This document shows, piece after piece, positions 4,844 through 36,771 of a stretch of DNA of 38,337 bases. This DNA comes from Oleiphilaceae bacterium (GTDB lineage Bacteria > Pseudomonadota > Gammaproteobacteria > Pseudomonadales > Oleiphilaceae), in contig JBFHVM010000001.1 of NCBI GenBank assembly GCA_041589495.1, positions 1 through 38,337 on the forward strand. Reading direction: 5' to 3'. The translations under genes were made by a program, and so were the position numbers. Each line of letters starts with the position of its first letter. Position 1 is the first letter of the stretch. Under the pieces are notes generated by a model. That model was given only the letters and a program-made list of their open reading frames with translations, searched no databases and was not told the origin of the DNA.

Positions 4844-6064
4844 ATGACACAGGCTGACATCCCCAATCGCGCATTATTTGATGAAGTAATGGTGCCCAAT
4901 TACGCCCCGGCAGCTATGATCCCGGTGCGGGGGGCTGGTTCACGCGTGTGGGATCAGCAAGGCAAAGAATATATCGACCTGGCGGGCGGAATTGCCGTGA
5001 GCGCGCTGGGTCACTGCCACCCGGCCCTGGTCGAAGCGCTGCATGATCAAGCGCAACGTTTATGGCATGTCAGCAACGTGTTGACTACCGAACCTGCTCT
5101 GCGACTGGCCAAACTACTCGTGGAGCAAACCTTTGCTGACAAGGTGTTTTTTGCCAATTCCGGAGGCGAGGCGAATGAGGCCGCTTTCAAGCTGGTACGT
5201 CGTTATGCCTGGGACCATTACGGCGAGGATAAAAACGAAATCATCTCTTTCTATAACAGCTTCCATGGTCGCACCCTGTTTACCGTCTCGGTAGGCGGTC
5301 AGGAAAAATATACCGAGGGCTTTGGTCCCATTCCCGGAGGGATCAAACATGCAGAATACAACAATATTGAATCCCTTAAGGCTTTGATTTCGGATAAAAC
5401 CTGCGCAGTGGTTCTTGAACCCATTCAGGGAGAAGGAGGCATACAACCTGCGGATCATGAATTCTTGCGTGAGGTGCGAGCGCTCTGTGATCAACATAAG
5501 GCCTTGCTGGTATTTGATGAAATACAAACTGGCGTCGGTCGCACAGGTGCGCTCTACGCTTACATGAATTCAGGTGTGGTGCCCGATATTCTCACAACGG
5601 CGAAAGGTCTTGGTGGTGGTTTTCCCATTGCGGCGATGCTAGCCAAGGATGATGTTGCAGCGAGTCTAAAAGTGGGGACGCATGGCAGCACTTACGGCGG
5701 CAACCCGATGGGGTGTGCTGTGGCCGAAGCCTTACTGCAGCAAGTTTTGCAGCCGGGTGTAATGGATGCGGTAAAGGTGAAAGGCGCACGCTTGCGTGAG
5801 GGCATGCGTGCACTGAACGATAAGCACAAGGTGTTTGCCGAAGTGCGCGGCGAGGGCCTGCTCATAGGCGGGCAAATGGCCCAAGACTATGAGGGACAAG
5901 CCAAGCAGCTCATGACGGCTGCGGCCGATCATGGCTTGATGGTGTTGATTGCCGGGCCCAATGTACTGCGTTTGGCACCATCACTACTGATTGAAGATGC
6001 CGATATTGCAGAAGGATTGAATCGCCTGGAACGTGCCATCGAGCAGTTCTTGTCTTCCCACTAA
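4844..6064 (+). CDS. astC: succinylornithine / acetylornithine aminotransferase (PLP-dependent class III)
   Basis: RBS AGAGGA. Motifs [12 protein letters not shown] and [11 protein letters not shown] (PLP lysine). 406 aa. First gene of the AST cluster. Confidence 0.9.
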
Positions 6065-6093
6065 TTGAGTCAGGAGAACACGAGGAGCATACG

Positions 6094-7107
6094 ATGATTC
6101 TCATTCGTCCTTGCCGTGCCAGCGATCTGGCCGGTATCGAATCTGTGGTTAACCAGAATACTTCGCGTGTATCGAGTCTGCCGCGCGACCGTGACAAACT
6201 CAGCGAGCGCATCGACCATTCACAACGCTCCTTTGATCAGGATCCCGACTTAGAAGGGCAAGAATTTTTTCTGTTTGTGATGGAAGATACCGAGTCGGGC
6301 GAGGTGCTTGGTACAGCAGGCATCAATATGAACCGAGACAAAAGCCGGCCTTTTTATAACTATCGACTCGACGAATTGATTCACTCTTCCCCAAAGCTCG
6401 GGGTACACACCGCAGTTCCGGTCCTCTACCTTACCCATGAGCTGACGGGCAGCACGGTGCTGTCCTCTTTCTCGATTAAGAAAGAAGTCCGCGATAGTGA
6501 CTACTTTGACCTGCTTGCACGCAGTCGCATGTTATTCCTGCGGCAGTTCAAAGAACAATTTGCTAGCCAGGTGGCGGTAGAGATACAGGGCGTGCATGGC
6601 GACAACGATGCTTCGGCGTTCTGGGATAGCCTGGGTCGACATTTCTTCGATATGGACTTTGCCACCGCGGACTATTATTCCGGCATCAAGAGCCGTACTT
6701 TCATTGCCGAAATGATGCCGCAGCACCCCATCTATGTGCCGCTGCTGTCGCAAACTGCACAGGAGGTATTGGGAGAGGCTGACCGCCGTACCGAACGCAC
6801 CTGTGCCTTGCTCTACAAGGAGGGATTTAAAAAGAGCAAGTATGTCGACATTTTCGATGGTGGCCCTACCTTGCTTGCCGATTTGGCGGGATTACGTAGC
6901 GTAAGTCAGGCGCAGGATAAGCAAATCCGCTGCAGCGATGTACATACCGGTTTGCGCTTTCTGGTGGCCAACCATTCCTTTGAGGACTTCCGTTGTTGCA
7001 TTACCCAGATTACAGATGGCATTGGAGATATTCTGCGGCTGGACGCCAGCGTTGCCGACCGACTGCGAGTCCAGGATGGCGATAGCATCAGCTACGTAGC
7101 ACTCTAG
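6094..7107 (+). CDS. aruF: arginine/ornithine N-succinyltransferase, subunit I
   Basis: RBS GAGGAG. N-terminus MILIRPCRASDLAGIE and 337 aa. First of two tandem paralogues, as in Pseudomonas aruFG. Confidence 0.85.
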   Translation: MILIRPCRASDLAGIESVVNQNTSRVSSLPRDRDKLSERIDHSQRSFDQDPDLEGQEFFLFVMEDTESGEVLGTAGINMNRDKSRPFYNYRLDELIHSSPKLGVHTAVPVLYLTHELTGSTVLSSFSIKKEVRDSDYFDLLARSRMLFLRQFKEQFASQVAVEIQGVHGDNDASAFWDSLGRHFFDMDFATADYYSGIKSRTFIAEMMPQHPIYVPLLSQTAQEVLGEADRRTERTCALLYKEGFKKSKYVDIFDGGPTLLADLAGLRSVSQAQDKQIRCSDVHTGLRFLVANHSFEDFRCCITQITDGIGDILRLDASVADRLRVQDGDSISYVAL

Positions 7108-19639: not shown

Positions 19640-20620
19640 CTAGTTGGGCAAAGTATACAAGCCAGTCTCGGTGAAATAAGCCTGTAGCACCTGTTTTGCG
19701 GTGACCGCTTTGTCGTGACATAAGCGAGTAAGCAAAGGCAGTTGTTGCGCCGCCTGTCGGACAGAATGTTCGATTATGCCTTCTGGCAACTCCCGCCAAC
19801 GTTGACAGACCACATGCAGGCAGGTGGAAGCGTTATCTGTGGAATCAAGATTTAATATACGAGATATAAGTGCTTCCCAGCGGGGTATCTCCCCTTTAAG
19901 TTCATTTTTTTCGCAGAGCAGGTCGGTGCCCAGTTGTTCCAGCAGGCTACTGTGGATCATTTCGAGATTGATTTTACTGACGGCTTTGGTGTGGCGTTCC
20001 TTATGGTCCTGAAATTCTTCGGCATAAATCATGACCATCACCGAGGTAGGTGCGTAACGATAGTATTGCTCGTATTGATAGTGGGAAGATAGTGCCGAAC
20101 AGAACAAGCTCTTTGGGTGAGGCTTGCCTTCAGAATTGGTGGTAAGGCGCCCGACAATTGGGTTGAGTATGTTGCCGTTTTTTTGCCGTTGATAGCCTGG
20201 CAGACTTCTGGCCAGAGCCTGTTTAACCCTTTTGCGATCCCTGCGCAGATTGGCGGCAGCAGCGTTCAGGCCCCAAAACAGAGTTTCACTTTCCTTTAGA
20301 GCGTGTTGGTGGTTGTTCCATTCGTGGTGAGGCAATAACAACCAGCGGCCAACGCGCTTTCCATTCTCTTTGGCGGTATAAAACGCCTTCATTTCGCCAC
20401 TTAAAAAGTGCACGAGCGATTGATCGAGATTGTCGATTGGTGGCAGATACGTGACATGGGCTAATCCCGGCGCGTAGGGGCATACGCTTTCTGCACGCGC
20501 TATCCAACCGCGGAGGCGTGCTTCACGCTCTGCAAATCCATTGTTATCTTCAGAACCGTTTCCCAAGGTAAACGGGGTTCTGGGCTGACTATTTGCACTG
20601 TACTTACTTGCCAATTTCAT
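19640..20620 (-). CDS. hypothetical protein, 326 aa, no family recognised
   Basis: Good RBS (AAGGAG 8 nt before the ATG at 20620). Uninterrupted ORF, divergently arranged with the LysR gene. The composition looks like a soluble protein. Confidence 0.6.
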   Translation of the reverse strand: MKLASKYSANSQPRTPFTLGNGSEDNNGFAEREARLRGWIARAESVCPYAPGLAHVTYLPPIDNLDQSLVHFLSGEMKAFYTAKENGKRVGRWLLLPHHEWNNHQHALKESETLFWGLNAAAANLRRDRKRVKQALARSLPGYQRQKNGNILNPIVGRLTTNSEGKPHPKSLFCSALSSHYQYEQYYRYAPTSVMVMIYAEEFQDHKERHTKAVSKINLEMIHSSLLEQLGTDLLCEKNELKGEIPRWEALISRILNLDSTDNASTCLHVVCQRWRELPEGIIEHSVRQAAQQLPLLTRLCHDKAVTAKQVLQAYFTETGLYTLPN

Positions 20621-30336: not shown

Positions 30337-30646
30337 GATATGCCCATTATTGACTGTTATGTGAATATTGTTCACGTTTTATTGTATAAAATCTACCCCC
30401 GCCGTTCCATATAGCAAAAACACTTGTTCCTGAGCTGGATTTTTGTGAAGGAGATTTGTCTTTACACTGGGCAACCTGGTTCTATTGGTTGACCTCCTGA
30501 ACGGTGGAGGATCGATGTTTTTCTTAGTGGAATCATACTGCAAATGGATTGCCGCCTGCGCGGTATTAACTGTGTTGTTGCAATGACAGCGGCCCGAGTA
30601 ACTGTCACTGACGATCAATAAATTTAATAAATAAGGAGTTTCGCTC

Positions 30647-31063
30647 GTGGAGAAAATCGCTATTGTTTATCCGGCTATTGCTATGTTTTTGCTGACGATA
30701 GGGCTGATATTATCGCTAGGCATTTCGCGCTTTTTCGCGATTCACAGTGGTAAGGTGAGTATCAAATATTATCGTTTGTACAACGAAGGCAAGCAGCCGG
30801 ATTACCTGCACTTGCGCGGGCGACACGTGCAAAACCTGTTTGAAGTGCCGCCCCTGTTTTACGCAGGCGTATTGTTTACCTATGTCACCGATCAGGTAAC
30901 TCTCATAGCCATCAGTGCCGCCTGGGCTTTCGTTGCCCTGCGTGTGGTACACAGTGTTATACATCTCACCAGCAATAATGTCAGCATGCGTTTCTTTGCT
31001 TTTGGGCTGAGTCTGTTGGCCCTTACCGTATTGTGGTTGCATCTATTGTGGCGGTTACTGTAA
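30647..31063 (+). CDS. MAPEG-family membrane protein
   Basis: GTG start 8 nt after AAGGAG. 138 aa, about 4 TM. NLFEVPPLFY and LRVVHSVIHL blocks are typical of MAPEG. Confidence 0.65.
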   Translation: MEKIAIVYPAIAMFLLTIGLILSLGISRFFAIHSGKVSIKYYRLYNEGKQPDYLHLRGRHVQNLFEVPPLFYAGVLFTYVTDQVTLIAISAAWAFVALRVVHSVIHLTSNNVSMRFFAFGLSLLALTVLWLHLLWRLL

Positions 31064-31126
31064 TGCATCGTCGCGGCCTCTAATCAGACAGATGGACTTT
31101 GGATTGTTTGGGTTGGATTGCCTCGG

Positions 31127-31415
31127 CTATACGGGCCTGAAGATCCTCTGTGTGGCCTTTTGTAATCGGGGTAAACCGGTTAATAGGGCGTGTTTCTGTT
31201 GGTCCTTGGCGGTCTCCTGCAGCAGTTTTGCACTTTCGCTACGATCCTGCTCCATGAGTATGGCCAGGGTCTGTAGCAGCGGGGGGCAGATTGCCCGGGT
31301 CGGAGAAGGCTGCTATATCCAGTTGATCTGCTCACGACTCTTGCCTGTAAAGGCGGCCAATAAGTCCCATGTCTGCAATGGTTAATTCGAGCATCTCGTC
31401 CCGCAGGTTGGTCAT
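31127..31415 (-). pseudogene. disrupted small (about 95-105 aa) helical protein gene, family unknown
   Basis: MTNLRDEMLELTIADMGLIGRLYRQES is followed by an in-frame TGA (31334-31332). The same frame continues ADQLDIAAFSDPGNLPP, then a +1 shift inside a C6 run (31286-31281) leads into LLQTLAILMEQDRSESAKLLQETAKDQQKHALLTGLPRLQKATQRIFRPV and a stop at 31129-31127. Confidence 0.35.
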
Positions 31416-31432
31416 GCTGGCCTGTCGGTTGG

Positions 31433-32000
31433 TCACAGCGCAATATGTTTGAGACCGCTGAGCTGCGCGATTAAGCTTGGGAAGTGCAGAGTGGCGCCGC
31501 GTCGACTGATGCAGTAGCGCTGTTCCACTTCAGTCTTGACCAGTTGTCCCAGGTTCTTCAAGGTGTGTAACTGTGAAGCGTTTAGTGTCCTGGGGCAGGA
31601 GTCGATGATGCATAGTGTGCCAACTTTAAAACCCAAGGGCTCATGCAAAGGGGCTCCGGCATAAAAGCGAATATTGGTTTCACCTGTTATAAGAGGATTA
31701 TCTTTAAAACGGGCATCGATACTGGTGTCTTCGATTAGAAACATATGATCGCTTTGAATGGCGTGATGGCAAAATGTGATTTCCCTTGGTGTTTCAGTAG
31801 CCTCGAGAGCCTTGCGCCGACCTGAACCATTGTCTATCGGTATCGACTAATGACACCAGTGCGATATCGACACCAAAGGTGTCTTTGGCAATTGGCGTAA
31901 TGCGATTCAGCTTTGGGTCTCTTCCAGAGTCCAGAATATCCAGTTTTTTCAACTGCTCATAGGCATCTGTTCTTCTAAGCAAAGCATTGTTCAATCCCAC
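31433..32000 (-). pseudogene. stand-alone GAF-domain protein gene with a single frameshift
   Basis: The upstream ORF ends ...DTDRQWFRSAQGSRGY*. The downstream frame reads (L)EATETPREITFCHHAIQSDHMFLIEDTSIDARFKDNPLITGETNIRFYAGAPL.... Removing one base near 31806-31810 restores the canonical WF(K/R)S..G.E..ET.R..SFC.H GAF pattern. Confidence 0.7.
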
Positions 32001-32275
32001 CCGTGAATGCCTAAGGTTGCGATTGCATGGTGCAGTATGGGGGCATTAACTTCGTCGCCAATGCTCGTTTCGCCATTTAATGGTGGGTCATATAGGGAAT
32101 TTCCTGATGCTTCTGGGGAATATTCTGATAGTGACTTTGCACCTGTTTACATACGCTTTGATGAAGTGATTTTTCTAATAAAAAAACCGAGTTGTTTTGA
32201 TGGCTTTGTGATTGGCTCACTTCGTCAACAAGTAGTCATGAGCCGAGACGAACACAGCACTAGAAGGTCGATACA

Positions 32276-32707
32276 ATGAAAACTTTGCATAGTCTCACAA
32301 TTAAACGGGCCGTAACAGGGCAGGGTAATGTTTTAGAAAGCCACCATGTGCATCCCAAGTCCTTTGAAGACCTTGGCACGGCAGGTATGCTCAGTTTTCC
32401 TGTTTGGTTGACGATATTGGTGTGTGTCTTGATTAGCCCTGCGATCGCTTACCTGGATGTAGCAATCTGGGCTTATGTGGCCCTGCTCGCGCTGGTATGT
32501 GTCGAGTCGCTTTGTTTGCGCCTGATGGATGCCGGTGTGTTATTGAGTTTTTCCGCCATATGGATTGAAGTCCTAGAGAGTGTTTTTGTATCAGTCGACC
32601 TGACAGATTTTTATCTGCATATTGTGGTGGGCACTGTGGCCAGCTTTGGGGTGCTGATTATTGCTAGTGTGATATTCATCTATCAAGAGCTCAAGCGCTT
32701 CAGCTAA
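32276..32707 (+). CDS. small integral membrane protein (3-4 TM), unknown function
   Basis: RBS GAAGG. Hydrophobic segments FPVWLTILVCVLISPAIAYL, IWAYVALLALVCV and VVGTVASFGVLIIASVIFIY. The only apparently intact gene in the 31.1-34.8 kb decayed block. Confidence 0.5.
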   Translation: MKTLHSLTIKRAVTGQGNVLESHHVHPKSFEDLGTAGMLSFPVWLTILVCVLISPAIAYLDVAIWAYVALLALVCVESLCLRLMDAGVLLSFSAIWIEVLESVFVSVDLTDFYLHIVVGTVASFGVLIIASVIFIYQELKRFS

Positions 32708-32721
32708 GGTTCATTTCGCTT

Positions 32722-33368
32722 TTAATCATCCAAACTGATCAATCCTTCTCTTAAAGCGTAACGCACCAGGCCAGCGATATCGCGGATCTGTAAACGCTCC
32801 ATAATTTGCGCGCGATGTGTTTCCACTGGCCTACTACTCAGGTTTAGTGTGTAGGCGATTTCCTTGGTGACATGCCCCAAGGCGATTAGCTTTAGTACCT
32901 CTGTTTGACGGGGCGTGAGTATGTGTTCTTTGTCGTTGTTGAGTGAGTCTTTTCATCAAATTCTGCCAGCACCAATCCCGAAACTTTAGGGCTCAAATAT
33001 TGCTGACCAGAGCAGATGGCCTGCAAGGCAAATTTCAGCTCTGTCCCGGCTGAGTCATTGACCAGATAGGCCTTTGCACCCGCTTTCAAGGCACGTATCG
33101 CGATGCTTTTGGATGCATGTATCGACAACACGATAACAGGGAGGTCGGGTTGGCCTTTGGAGAGCAGTTCCAACACTTCGAACCCCGACACATTGCTCAT
33201 GGCCAAGTCACTGATCAGGACATCGGGATGATGCTGATCTACCAGAGTTTGAACTTCCGCGCCGTCGCTACCCTCGGCAACCACCGAATATTCGGGCAGG
33301 CCATCTATGAGCGCTCGCAGGCCGGCCCGAACTAACTGATGGTCATCAACCAGTATGACTTTGGTCAT
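32722..33368 (-). pseudogene. NarL/LuxR-type response regulator gene with a frameshift between REC and HTH
   Basis: The REC frame (MTKVILVDDHQLVRAGL...DVLISDLAMS...) runs into a stop at 32892. The LuxR HTH (LTPRQTEVLKLIALGHVTKEIAYTLNLSSRPVETHRAQIMERL...LISLDD*) lies in another frame. The junction is at an A4/T4 run (32950-32953). Length is 647 nt, not a multiple of 3. Confidence 0.8.
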
Positions 33369-34758
33369 GGTGTATGCGCCTTTTCTGAGAGGGGCAGAGA
33401 CAGGATCATATGGCTGCGCCTGCCAGGGTGGGGGCGAGCTCATCACAATATCGCCGCCCGCGATGAGTGCTCTCTCGCGCATGTAAACCAGCCCGAGATG
33501 ATCTGATTTGGAATGTATGTCAAACCCCACACCGTTGTCTTCGACATCAATTTGTAGGATGTTTTCATCTATTTCTATGTCAATTTTTACCGGGCTGGCA
33601 TGGGCATGGCGCAGAATATTTGTCAGGCATTCCTGAATCATTCTAAAAGCAATGATTTCAGTTTGTTGCGAGAGTTGGGGAATAGTTGTCGATGTAAATT
33701 CGTATTCGATACCTGCAGAATCCAGCAAGCGTTCGCTTAACCATTCCAGTGCAGCTGCCAGGCCCAGCTCACCGAGTTGTGGGGGCTTAGCATCAAAGAT
33801 AGATTGCGCACCTTCGCAATGGCGTGACTGCTCATTGTCAGGAGTTGTTCGGCTTGATGAAGTGAGTCGCGGTCGTTGAGTTGCCGGGCTAACATGCCCA
33901 CTCCCAGACTAATGGCTGTTAACGTTTGGCCTGTTTCATCGTGTAAAGTTGCCGATATTGCTGGTCGCGCTTATAGACCTGAAATTTCATATTGATCTGG
34001 TCGGTGGGATCCATGCAGCACCCAATAACCACATCCTCGTCAAAACCTTGTCTGATACGTTCGCCCCTGATCAGTATGCGGCGCTCGATATCCAAGATTA
34101 AACGCAGTCGACAGGTCAGCTCAAAGGGCTCTTTATATTTTGATTTTGGCAAGTTCTCTACAAGTTGATAGCGGTCTTCATCATCAATCTTTGCGAACAG
34201 GTGGTCGAGGCTGGTGCTTGTCGCCGCTGTGTCCGGGCGAAGCATATCGAGAATGCTTAAAGCACTGGTCGATAGCAATAAACGATTACTTGCAGGGTAG
34301 TACTCCCAGGAGCCCAGTTGAGCGACCACCTGGGCCAACTCAAGATGGCGCAGTGATTTGCGCCGCGCGTCCATGCTTTTTTGCCAGGGGGCACGACTCT
34401 TCAGGACAAGAATATAGCTAGCGTTGTTGCCTAAAAATAATGGTTTAAAGTGCACAGTCAAATAATGAAGAAGCTGTGAGTCGGGCGGAACAAACTGGCA
34501 CCGAATTCTGGTTTTGTTTTCCGTCAATGCGTCCCGCCAGGCAGAGCGGCTTAACGTGGGTATAAATTCCATGATGGCTTTACCCACAATTGCCTCAGAG
34601 TTCTGATTGAGCAGCTTTTCGGCCAGCGGGTTGGCATGCAGAATAGTGAGGTGGTCGCGATCAATGAGTAGGCAAGCCAGTGGCATGCCGTCAATCAGGG
34701 TGTAGTCGTTGGTTATGCTCGAAAGAAGATTGTTTATGGCCATTTGATCGAGTTGCAA
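33365..34758 (-). pseudogene. cytoplasmic PAS-PAS-HisKA_3-HATPase sensor kinase gene with three frameshifts
   Basis: The N-terminal PAS frame ends at 33919. The H-box ISATLHDETGQTLTAISLG is in a second frame (shift near 33953-33962). KPPQLGELGLAAALEWLSERLLDSAGIEYEF plus the HATPase (VEDNGVGF, HLGLVYMRERA) is in a third frame (shift near 33787-33790). The expected tail PGRRSHMILSLPLSEKAHTP* uses a fourth frame segment (shift near 33427-33436), with its TGA overlapping the regulator ATG (ATGA). Length is 1394 nt, not a multiple of 3. Confidence 0.75.
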
Positions 34759-34820
34759 CCTTAGTTAGAGTATAGAAGTAGAATGGCCGCTTCACGAATC
34801 ATTGAACCTGGAGGGCCGTT

Positions 34821-35210
34821 TTGAAACTGAGCTTTACGGAAAGTTGTGGTAATCGAAATGTGCTCTGTCGAGAGGATGAACGGCGCGTAGAAATCTACGT
34901 ATTGGATCAGCAAGACAAAGAAACCTATCTGGTGGTCGCGTTGGCCGGAACTGTTGGACAAGTCCCTGATCGTCTTCGTTGTATGGGCCCATTTTACTCC
35001 CGGGAGCAGGCACAAGGTGCCGTTGCAGCCGTGCAGCATGCGCTGGTTAACGAGGGCTTTGCACCCGTCGCTGAGCGGTGCGAGTGGGAAATGGTCGCCG
35101 CGCGTGAAGCGCGCGCAATTCGTCATGAGCGCGAACTGAATGCGGTGGATGCGGAGTTTGTGCCGCTCGGCATTATGCCGGAAAAACCGGAGCCGAGAGA
35201 GCCTAGGTGA
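34821..35210 (+). CDS. hypothetical 129-aa protein, first gene of a coupled pair
   Basis: TTG start 5 nt after GGAGGG (34810-34815). The stop TGA (35208-35210) overlaps the next gene's start. There is a weak pattern-level resemblance to a WGR-type fold (VEIYVL...YLVVALAGTVGQV...FYSREQAQGAVAAVQHALVNEGF). An antisense ORF of similar length exists, so coding status is not certain. Confidence 0.45.
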   Translation: MKLSFTESCGNRNVLCREDERRVEIYVLDQQDKETYLVVALAGTVGQVPDRLRCMGPFYSREQAQGAVAAVQHALVNEGFAPVAERCEWEMVAAREARAIRHERELNAVDAEFVPLGIMPEKPEPREPR

Positions 35211-36058
35211 TGCGTATAATACTGAGCCGTAAAGGTTTTGATTCGTCGTCTGGCGGTTGTCCCAACCCAATATTGCCTGATGGTCGCCTGGTGGCACTGC
35301 CTATTCCCGATGCAGATTCGCCAGTGACATATAGCCAGTTGCAATACGACCCTTCCATTGCAGAGCTGGCCAGTCAACTCAGTGGTAGACGAATGGCGGG
35401 CCATGGCGCGCATCTCGACCCCGATTTGGAGGCAGGGTTGCAGAGCAGAAATCGCGATTGGCGGCCTGTTCTGGGTCAGCATGGTGCGGCAGAAGGCCAT
35501 CTATGTAACGAGGACGTAGGGGGCGGTGACCTGTTCTTATTTTTCGGCCTGTTTCGTCCTGTTGAGCGGGAAGGGCGACGATGGCGCTTTGTTTCTGGCA
35601 GTGTGTCGCGACATTATATTTGGGGCTGGTTGCTAGTGGATCGCAAGATTGATCTGGCTTCAGAAGTAGTGCCTCAAGCCTATCAAGCGCACCCCCATGC
35701 CTTTGGTGACAGAGGTCGCCGCAACGCGCTTTATATTGCCCAATCGAATCTTTCGTCACTGATCATCTCACCAGTGATTCCGGGTGCCGGGTGTTTTCCA
35801 CTGGCGGTGCCGCAGCTGTGCCTGACGCATCCCGAAGCAACCAGGCCCAGTGTATGGCAACTACCATCGTGGTTCTTTCCGCGAGGTAGGCCACCACTTA
35901 GCTATCATCACAAGCAAGCACGCTGGTCTTTAACAGACAATGGCTGTGAATTGCAGGCAGTGGCGCGTGGTCAGGAGTTTGTGTTGCAGGCCGAGCACTA
36001 TCCAGAGTACCAAAACTGGTTGCGGGAATTGTTTGCATATGGCCTGCGCAAACAATGA
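35210..36058 (+). CDS. conserved-looking protein of unknown function, tentatively Nmad3-like (putative nucleotide-modification-associated domain)
   Basis: The ATG at 35210 (or the GTG at 35207) overlaps the upstream stop (GTGATG). The N-terminal block MRIILSRKGFDSSSGGCPNPILPDGRLVALPIPD, then AHLDPDL...GQHGAA..HL....V..GDLFLFFGLF, is a signature I recall for the Nmad3 family, from memory only. About 282 aa. Confidence 0.55.
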   Translation: MRIILSRKGFDSSSGGCPNPILPDGRLVALPIPDADSPVTYSQLQYDPSIAELASQLSGRRMAGHGAHLDPDLEAGLQSRNRDWRPVLGQHGAAEGHLCNEDVGGGDLFLFFGLFRPVEREGRRWRFVSGSVSRHYIWGWLLVDRKIDLASEVVPQAYQAHPHAFGDRGRRNALYIAQSNLSSLIISPVIPGAGCFPLAVPQLCLTHPEATRPSVWQLPSWFFPRGRPPLSYHHKQARWSLTDNGCELQAVARGQEFVLQAEHYPEYQNWLRELFAYGLRKQ

Positions 36059-36144
36059 GTTTGTACAATACTATTGTTGACTGGCTGGTTATAATGCTTT
36101 GAGCAACTGTGTAGAAGAATAACCCATAACGACACAAGGCAATC

Positions 36145-36771
36145 ATGGAAACAACAAGGCGACAACCGATTCAGGATCGCGGTAAGGAACGCTATCAATT
36201 GATTATTCAGGCCACGCAACGGTTAGTGGGTGAGCGTGGTAATGATCAGGTGAGCATACGGGACATCGCCAAAGAGGCCGGTGTGGCTCCCAGTTCAATC
36301 TACCAGTATTTTGACGACAAGCATGCCATTATCGTTGCGATCATGAACGATTATTTTGATCGTAGCTTCAGCCTGCTTGCGGAGCAGACATCCAGGGCGA
36401 AGTCACTGGCAGAATGGACTGCCGCCATTGAAAGTTCGGTAGATTATTTCTTTGCCATGCTAAGGGAAGACCCCAGTTGGGCAACCATTTGGAGCGGCAT
36501 TCAAGCCAGCCCGGCTTTGCGGGATATCGACAACCAGGATGCCCTGCGCAATGCCGAATTGCTCAAAGATCAATTACAGGGTTTTTGCCCGCACCTGAGT
36601 GACAAAGAGGCTCTATCGGCTTGCTTGCTGCTGGTGCAAATGGCAGGGCTGACGGCACGTATGGCGCTGTTTTCGGATACGCGCCTCGCCGATGATTTAA
36701 TTCAGGAGTTCAAAACGCTATTGCGACTGAGGGTAGCGCAACTGGGCAGTCAGAGCACTAGCGCTAACTAG
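36145..36771 (+). CDS. TetR/AcrR-family transcriptional regulator
   Basis: HTH VSIRDIAKEAGVAPSSIYQYFDDKHAI. 208 aa. Confidence 0.85.
   Translation: METTRRQPIQDRGKERYQLIIQATQRLVGERGNDQVSIRDIAKEAGVAPSSIYQYFDDKHAIIVAIMNDYFDRSFSLLAEQTSRAKSLAEWTAAIESSVDYFFAMLREDPSWATIWSGIQASPALRDIDNQDALRNAELLKDQLQGFCPHLSDKEALSACLLLVQMAGLTARMALFSDTRLADDLIQEFKTLLRLRVAQLGSQSTSAN

Follow-up and report, generated by a model that had tools for sequence, protein, structure and literature searches.

Nmad3 (Pfam PF18754) and the PA4575-like family (PF24876) are two protein families that are already recorded in Pfam yet uncharacterised. Nmad3 is said to have been defined by comparative genomics, in the work of Iyer, Zhang, Burroughs and Aravind in Nucleic Acids Research (NAR) in 2013. 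An earlier note on the DNA studied here had stated that Nmad3 was never characterised biochemically, which agrees with the searchable literature, where no characterisation was found; literature searches for Nmad3 and PA4575, and an NCBIfam search of the two proteins of this study, returned nothing relevant. In some genomes Nmad3 is preceded by Nmad2 (PF18753), for which the literature search gave one relevant paper, that on DefensePredictor (PMC13092281). In that paper the five-gene defence system DS-4 'NTTI', composed of a thymidylate synthase, a deoxynucleoside monophosphate (dNMP) kinase, a 5-hydroxymethyldeoxyuridine (5-hmdU) kinase, a TIR protein and Nmad2, was experimentally validated, and no Nmad3 is listed (PMC13092281). 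In the present study, a stretch of 38,337 nucleotides (nt) from an Oleiphilaceae bacterium (GenBank assembly GCA_041589495.1, contig JBFHVM010000001.1, positions 1 to 38,337; the whole stretch is called the window) was analysed, and an Nmad3 gene was found directly behind a PA4575-like gene. This pairing is a clade-restricted gene-order variant of which no description was found. On balance, we lean slightly towards reading it as a lineage-specific operon accretion rather than as a dedicated two-protein system, with Nmad3 working essentially alone, which it must do in many genomes, where it stands solo. The two genes and their signals, with lengths in amino acids (aa), are the following.

34810..34815, + strand: Shine-Dalgarno-like GGAGGG, 5 nt before the TTG of the small gene; read from the sequence.
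34821..35210, + strand: PA4575-like gene (PF24876), 129 aa, TTG start, TGA stop at 35208-35210; Pfam match, orthologues and open frame.
35208..35212, + strand: TGATG stop/start overlap of 1 nt, stop 35208-35210, start 35210-35212; read from the sequence.
35210..36058, + strand: Nmad3 gene (PF18754), 282 aa, ATG start; full-length Pfam match.

The TTG-initiated open reading frame (ORF) of 129 aa and its strong Shine-Dalgarno sequence with a 5-nt spacer were confirmed as the earlier note had described them, and the ORF is a genuine gene because its product matches PF24876 (35.1 bits against a cut-off of 27, residues 22-115), belongs with 65 clusters of relatives at 50% identity, has a conserved start and a confident AlphaFold2 (AF2) model, and lies in a sense frame that is always open. 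The relatives were recovered with a 3-sequence profile and then by searching 1.84 billion representatives exhaustively with HMMER; nearly all are stand-alone single-domain proteins of about 94-165 aa, and PF24876 was matched by 64 of the 64 aligned ones. Two metagenome-contig scans seeded with small-protein alignments gave no relatives, and a PDB sequence search with the small protein gave no relevant match. The close orthologues, which are 42-56% identical, all share the M-K-L start position, at which the codon is TTG, GTG or ATG depending on the relative. The worry had been that the 129-aa ORF is spurious, or that the antisense ORF of 178 aa at 34761-35297 is the true gene, which would make Nmad3 monocistronic. 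The antisense ORF does exist, the start codon is a TTG, and a word-based homology search with the small protein returned the query as its sole match. In six relatives, however, the sense frame was open in every case (6/6) and the antisense frame was interrupted in most, so the antisense ORF was ruled out as a gene. Moreover, the 129-aa ORF is conserved upstream of Nmad3 in relatives of one clade, and its spuriousness is counted as already refuted, with a negligible residual probability.

The assignment of the second protein to Nmad3, which the earlier note had made, was correct and is strong. The protein matched PF18754 with 260.6 bits (cut-off 27, E 2.1e-77), and its residues 2-260 covered the whole profile (positions 1-247 of 247). 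The motifs MRIILSRKGFDSSSGGCPNP and GDLFLFFGLF, on which that assignment had been based, are both present and are conserved across the family. A word-indexed search gave 4411 homologues, and the closest of them, at 48-59% identity, belong to marine Gammaproteobacteria (among others Oleiphilaceae, Amphritea, Marinobacter, Halomonas/Billgrantia, Microbulbifer and Litorivivens). Among 106 aligned Nmad3 sequences 39 columns were invariant, all of which the window protein has by construction, being itself within the alignment. Many of the invariant residues are polar; they include S6, R7, K8, D11, G15, G16, D34, H68, D70, D72, R80, Q90 and H97, and further H135, H163, H233, R238, Q255 and E256. The conserved motifs are SRKGFD, the G15-G16 pair (SSSGG in the window), H-L-D-P-D, HPH and RGQE. 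This pattern of invariant polar residues suggests an enzyme with putative phosphate-binding and metal-binding sites.

The junction of the two genes was partly redrawn. The second ORF had been given as 283 aa, with a 4-nt GTGA overlap between the genes. The frame 35207-36058 (+) indeed opens with a GTG at 35207 and is 283 aa long from there. All Nmad3 relatives, however, begin with M-[RK]-[LI]-I (in alignments with 28 and then 105 homologues), and therefore the true start is the ATG at 35210, the product is of 282 aa and the GTG was rejected as the start. The stop/start overlap is real, and is the 1-nt TGATG. Furthermore, the tight coupling is kept in relatives: the distance between the small gene and Nmad3 is -1 nt in the window, +3 at L001/L002, -1 at L003 (again TGATG), +12 at L083 and +3 at L091 (the loci are introduced below). 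In L091 (GCA_041589955.1) the public Nmad3 call of 260 aa from position 1140 omits the conserved N-terminus; the gene is 1080-1922, where translation from a GTG 3 nt past the small-gene stop gives (M)KIVFSRKGFDSS. Judging from this spacing, both genes are very probably co-transcribed, with Nmad3 translation coupled to termination of the small gene. A promoter and terminator scan at the locus gave nothing above chance, and an Rfam scan gave no relevant element.

The distribution of the two genes was assessed from both sides. In a sample of 80 Nmad3 loci from GTDB species representatives, a PA4575-like gene was sought within 6 kb of Nmad3 with an iterated narrow hidden Markov model (HMM) and a broad 64-sequence family HMM, and it was found at one locus (1/80), on which both HMMs agree: L003, an Oleiphilaceae metagenome-assembled genome (MAG). 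Nmad2 overlapped Nmad3 from upstream in 8 of the 80 loci, and neither partner was present in 71, around which no neighbour was conserved beyond the genus level. From the side of the small protein, the pair was found on a metagenome contig (L001/L002), in L003, in a 4.27-Mb genome (L083) and in L091, in addition to the window, and a PA4575-like gene without Nmad3 was found at 7 of the 12 distinct loci (L084, L085/L086, L087, L088/L089, L096, L098 and L090). The pairing is thus confined to one Oleiphilaceae/Oceanospirillales-like clade; the co-occurrence of the two genes holds as a tight pair among relatives of that clade and fails for Nmad3 across GTDB species overall. In the neighbour-joining tree of Nmad3, the proteins of the window, L001, L003 and L091 fall into a single clade, close to which L083 is placed, and in that of the small protein L090 groups with L083, inside the paired clade. 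At L090 (GCA_041624095.1) the small gene is accompanied by TetR, AraC, cytochrome c and methyltransferase genes; TetR follows the small gene after only 110 nt, and no Nmad3 is present there. The simplest history would therefore be that Nmad3 was captured once, behind a small gene already in place, and was later lost once, at L090. Apart from this, an 84-aa ORF with a predicted hydrophobic N-terminus and no Pfam family was seen at L090 (338-592); it shares 4 nt with the start of the PA4575-like gene. Nmad3 itself occurs in most species of several marine genera, at genus-conserved positions, and the conservation of its neighbours at the genus level in Marinobacter points to a stable chromosomal gene.

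The eight Nmad2-Nmad3 loci (L081 at 5222-6858, L026, L036, L043, L062, L069, L071 and L074) belong to Pseudomonas fluorescens PS662 (L081), Marinobacter changyiensis (L074), a gammaproteobacterial MAG, Syntrophobacterales, a 'delta proteobacterium', Bryobacterales, Holophaga and Phycisphaerales. In these hosts, which represent at least four phyla and include MAGs of Acidobacteriota, Planctomycetota and Desulfobacterota, the two overlapping genes form a self-contained cassette without a third conserved gene. The Nmad3 proteins linked to Nmad2 are scattered over the neighbour-joining tree and are found on basal branches among others, which suggests that the Nmad2 pairing may be ancestral. According to hhalign, neither the PA4575-like protein (probability 0.2%) nor Nmad3 (probability 1.5%) is related to Nmad2, and Nmad2 is encoded in no frame of the window.

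The surroundings of the pair contain the following features.

32892-34758, - strand: decayed PAS histidine kinase (pseudogene), compared with the intact 628-aa homologue upstream in L003.
36077..36096, + strand: 20-nt element TTGACTGGCTGGTTATAATG in the Nmad3-TetR spacer; context, membership in the unit not shown.
36145..36771, + strand: TetR-family regulator (Pfam TetR_N and TetR_C_22), syntenic downstream neighbour; context, membership in the unit likewise not shown.
37488 to beyond 38337, - strand: S-adenosylmethionine (SAM)-dependent methyltransferase (PF10672), intact, running off the window end, 258 aa in the ORF list.

The gene order of small gene, Nmad3, TetR, cytochrome c (-) and PF10672 methyltransferase (-) is common to the window and L091. 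TetR also lies downstream in L001 and L003; its product is 83-87% identical in L091, L001 and L003, and at L090 the gene directly follows the small gene. For the same three loci, identity to the window is 58-59% for Nmad3 and 52-56% for the small protein. Cytochrome c is about 59% identical. The methyltransferase gene, which starts 1.4 kb downstream of the pair, is syntenic in L083 (where it is convergent with Nmad3), L090 and L091, and its product is 60-72% identical across paired loci, with 72% in L091. An upstream amino-acid ATP-binding cassette (ABC) transporter and an ALO-type oxidase are shared by the window and L001. The pair had been regarded as isolated and as having no methylase nearby; the second statement is contradicted by the intact methyltransferase, and in evolutionary terms the pair is part of a conserved syntenic block. 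Neither the methyltransferase nor TetR was retained as a candidate partner of Nmad3, both being present at L090 without Nmad3 and neither being near Nmad3 in the other 79 loci. The decayed two-component system upstream and the TetR gene downstream, reported earlier, were both found again. The histidine kinase is disrupted by two frameshifts and lacks about 135 aa, and it matches residues 38-294, 429-490 and 489-602 of the L003 protein in three frames.

The 20-nt element TTGACTGGCTGGTTATAATG shows no difference between the window, L091, L001 and L003 (100% identity), in a spacer of which the remainder is not conserved and next to an Nmad3 gene whose product is only about 58% identical. The window has a single copy of it, against a chance expectation of 0 matches; it includes TATAAT, and a TTGACT lies just 7 nt upstream of the TATAAT. 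It is probably a promoter or operator of the TetR gene that would set the 3' limit of the two-gene unit. Some further observations were made in the window. The C-terminal kinase fragment continues in frame into a response-regulator receiver domain, without a DNA-binding helix-turn-helix according to Pfam. Between the ALO-type oxidase and the decayed two-component genes, about 2.5 kb (30400-32900) contain short ORFs only, with a G+C content of 0.44-0.47; this resembles gene remnants and may reflect genome decay. An FRG-domain protein (PF08867; 21856-22632, - strand) and a 326-aa protein without Pfam family (19640-20620, - strand) adjoin a LysR regulator.

The genomic setting was also examined for signs of defence or mobility. 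Neither protein matched a PADLOC family at E<=1, and Nmad3 had no homologue in 50,697 phage records and no PHROG match. On plasmids it was found in 6 records only, all of 356 kb or larger (megaplasmids/chromids), as distant homologues with 34-42% identity. No integrase, transposase, restriction or other defence gene was found in the annotated parts of the window (about 19 kb, covering roughly 19.6-30.4 and 32.9-38.3 kb), and no integrase, restriction or other defence gene in the related loci; the window neighbours are the pseudogenised histidine kinase, TetR, cytochrome c, the PF10672 methyltransferase, the ABC transporter, the ALO-type oxidase and LysR. The G+C content is 0.52-0.57 over 34600-36099 versus 0.44-0.54 in flanking windows, which is at most a modest local rise.

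The AF2 model of Nmad3 is beta-rich, with a mean predicted local distance difference test (pLDDT) of 95.3 and a predicted template modelling score (pTM) of 0.93. Nmad3 has no sequence relative in the PDB, and fold search with the model gave no significant neighbour, the best E being 0.72 for the PDB and 0.30 for BFVD. Weak PDB matches covering part of the model (5y7d, 2hd9, 6kir, 1wmm and 1z85, E 0.8-4.6) include human and mouse EOLA1, PH1033 twice, RsmE TM1380 twice and a Lon protease chain; ASCH/EVE proteins, RsmE and the Lon protease chain account for about half of the 15 best PDB matches. Among the weak BFVD matches a viral ASCH protein was second (E 0.56), and a DUF3850 protein was also found. 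We assume that the matches labelled ASCH, EVE, RsmE and DUF3850 may be classed together as PUA-like; their probabilities are 0.04-0.15, with E 0.6-2.8 for the ASCH/EVE matches, and none is significant. Presumably, the GD-hydrophobic strand motif GDLFLFFG is also reminiscent of ASCH/EVE domains. The PUA-like resemblance of Nmad3 is a lead, not a result.

The AF2 model of the small protein (pLDDT 84, pTM 0.71) is compact, with four antiparallel strands followed by two helices, and had no significant structural neighbour; its weak matches were Sm/LSm proteins and the WGR domains of PARP1 and PARP2. The earlier note had seen a faint WGR-like pattern in this protein, and that proposal did not hold at the sequence level. 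The protein is PA4575-like and lacks a W-G-R motif; Pfam WGR gave no match for it at E<=1 and none for 64 family members at E<=10. In hhalign, the PA4575-like profile against Escherichia coli YehF (RefSeq: PF05406 (WGR) family protein) reached a probability of 0.4%, with a short non-significant alignment over the 'GP.xSxxQA...L...GF' region, which is presumably the pattern that had been taken for WGR. Foldseek matches to PARP1/2 WGR were non-significant (E 0.2-0.65, TM 0.33-0.47), and Sm/LSm proteins scored equally well; the best WGR match was 9zqb_P (probability 0.85, TM 0.43/0.47, root-mean-square deviation 3.0 over 97 columns). The small PA4575-like family may be distantly WGR-like.

Taken together, the following course of events is proposed. 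In an Oleiphilaceae/Oceanospirillales-like lineage of marine Gammaproteobacteria, an ordinary Nmad3 gene would have settled directly behind a resident PA4575-like gene, which would have been part of a conserved chromosomal block of small gene, TetR, cytochrome c and SAM methyltransferase. The two genes would be expressed from a joint transcript, on which ribosomes that have reached the TGA of the small gene would reinitiate at the ATG of Nmad3 that overlaps it. Nmad3 would be the catalytic and largely autonomous component, the same gene being solo in most marine Gammaproteobacteria and paired with Nmad2 elsewhere; the small protein, although co-expressed, may bind Nmad3 or nucleic acid and would not be needed by the Nmad3 family generally. 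With low certainty, Nmad3 may bind a phosphate-bearing nucleotide or nucleic acid through a PUA-like (ASCH/EVE-like) beta-barrel, and a His/Asp (metal) centre may act on the base or nucleotide. This biochemistry is proposed on account of some 40 invariant positions, among which His, Asp, Arg and Lys are frequent, the confidently predicted beta-rich fold without a solved relative and the repeated weak PUA-like matches. In its present genomic setting Nmad3 would serve housekeeping nucleotide or RNA/DNA base processing and not phage defence. The full proposal of a metal-dependent enzyme with a PUA-like base- or nucleotide-recognition core and a housekeeping action on a modified nucleotide or nucleic-acid base is a tentative one, which we regard as doubtful.

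Several points weigh against the view of the pair as a lineage-specific accretion and against the biochemistry attached to it. The tight spacing was kept while Nmad3 diverged to 48-59% identity, which could reflect selection for stoichiometric co-expression of partners, and the small gene fills the same translationally coupled upstream slot as Nmad2 elsewhere. Both protein trees are neighbour-joining trees without support values, and the biochemical proposal depends on the non-significant fold matches and on residue conservation. The spacing and the upstream slot also speak for true functional partnership, in which the PA4575-like protein, possibly a divergent WGR-like binder, would have replaced Nmad2 as the accessory subunit of a housekeeping nucleic-acid modification or repair module: the spacing stays at 12 nt or less in 5 of 5 pairs although the proteins are 42-59% identical, the two protein trees roughly agree with each other, and the small protein shows the weak fold resemblance to PARP2 WGR and the non-significant alignment with YehF described above, in addition to its Nmad2-like position. 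Nevertheless, such a partnership appears unlikely. The pairing goes back to one evolutionary origin and its flanks are syntenic, so that it counts as one event; L090 lost Nmad3 and kept the small gene; the small gene is missing from 79 of the 80 Nmad3 loci, and Nmad3 from 7 of the 12 PA4575-like loci; the small protein is unrelated in sequence to Nmad2; and WGR is unsupported by HMM. Quite improbable is the stronger version, in which the PA4575-like protein would be a cryptic, highly diverged WGR-like adaptor and the obligate partner of Nmad3 in the role of Nmad2, the two forming a system that processes a specific nucleic-acid lesion or modification. If true, this would give the first functional handle on PF18754 and PF24876, both of which are without known activity or solved structure.

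The earlier note had suggested, as a possibility, a minimal, undescribed anti-phage or nucleic-acid conflict module, which we consider very unlikely at this locus. In its favour, the related Nmad2 domain belongs to the validated DS-4 'NTTI' system (PMC13092281), and both Nmad3 and the small protein are far more diverged than the adjacent TetR (58% and 53% versus 87% identity). Moreover, some of the distant homologues of Nmad3 that megaplasmids carry have as neighbours an AbiJ-NTD4 protein and a prophage end in Clostridium butyricum (L092, 5001-6803), HNH and dcm genes in Bacillus toyonensis (L093, 3473-5837), and, in Burkholderia (L094, 3923-6586), a metallophosphoesterase, an HD protein and an overlapping hypothetical gene. 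In contrast to the surroundings in the marine clade, these appear to be conflict-related, and a conflict role could hold for the wider family, which is a further point against a purely housekeeping view of Nmad3. For the pair itself, however, the context offers no support: the PADLOC, phage and plasmid results were as given above, the neighbours are metabolic or housekeeping genes without integrase, transposase or restriction genes, the G+C rise is modest at most, the one-clade pairing is stable and syntenic across relatives, and Nmad3 keeps genus-conserved positions in most species of several marine genera. No defence island was seen around the window pair or around related loci.

Under the preferred reading of an accretion, Nmad3 in marine Gammaproteobacteria behaves as a stable chromosomal housekeeping gene, not as a defence gene, and the locus shows that the coupled upstream slot, usually that of Nmad2, can hold an unrelated small protein. 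The locus alone overturns no current view and opens no long-standing question. The value belongs to the Nmad3 family rather than to the present locus, since it is a large family of uncharacterised putative enzymes worth study, with more than 4,000 homologues, about 40 invariant residues and a confident fold for which no solved or viral structural relative was found.

In comparison with known systems, the ASCH/EVE domains (PUA-like; PH1033 and human EOLA1) are recurrent weak structural matches to part of the Nmad3 model, but Nmad3 is twice as large and has extra conserved His/Asp motifs, and no sequence-profile link between them was found. The WGR domain (PF05406; PARP1/2 and YehF) shares with the small protein a beta-sheet followed by a helix. 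With the PA4575-like family (PF24876) the small protein has in common a single domain of about 120-130 aa and the motifs E24, G43, GP(F/Y), W89 and F-x-P; elsewhere these proteins are stand-alone, in varied housekeeping contexts (UvrD, DjlA, LemA/TPM, DsbD_2 and an aspartyl/lysyl-tRNA-synthetase-like gene), and Nmad3 lies downstream in this clade only. The Nmad2-Nmad3 cassette resembles the window pair in having a small upstream gene that overlaps the Nmad3 start on one strand, with no third conserved gene, and differs in that the upstream protein of the window is unrelated to Nmad2. Thousands of homologues in Marinobacter, Halomonas, Amphritea and Microbulbifer share the length and the single-domain architecture of the window Nmad3; the protein itself is no different from its family, and what differs is its neighbour, a PA4575-like gene upstream instead of Nmad2 or nothing.

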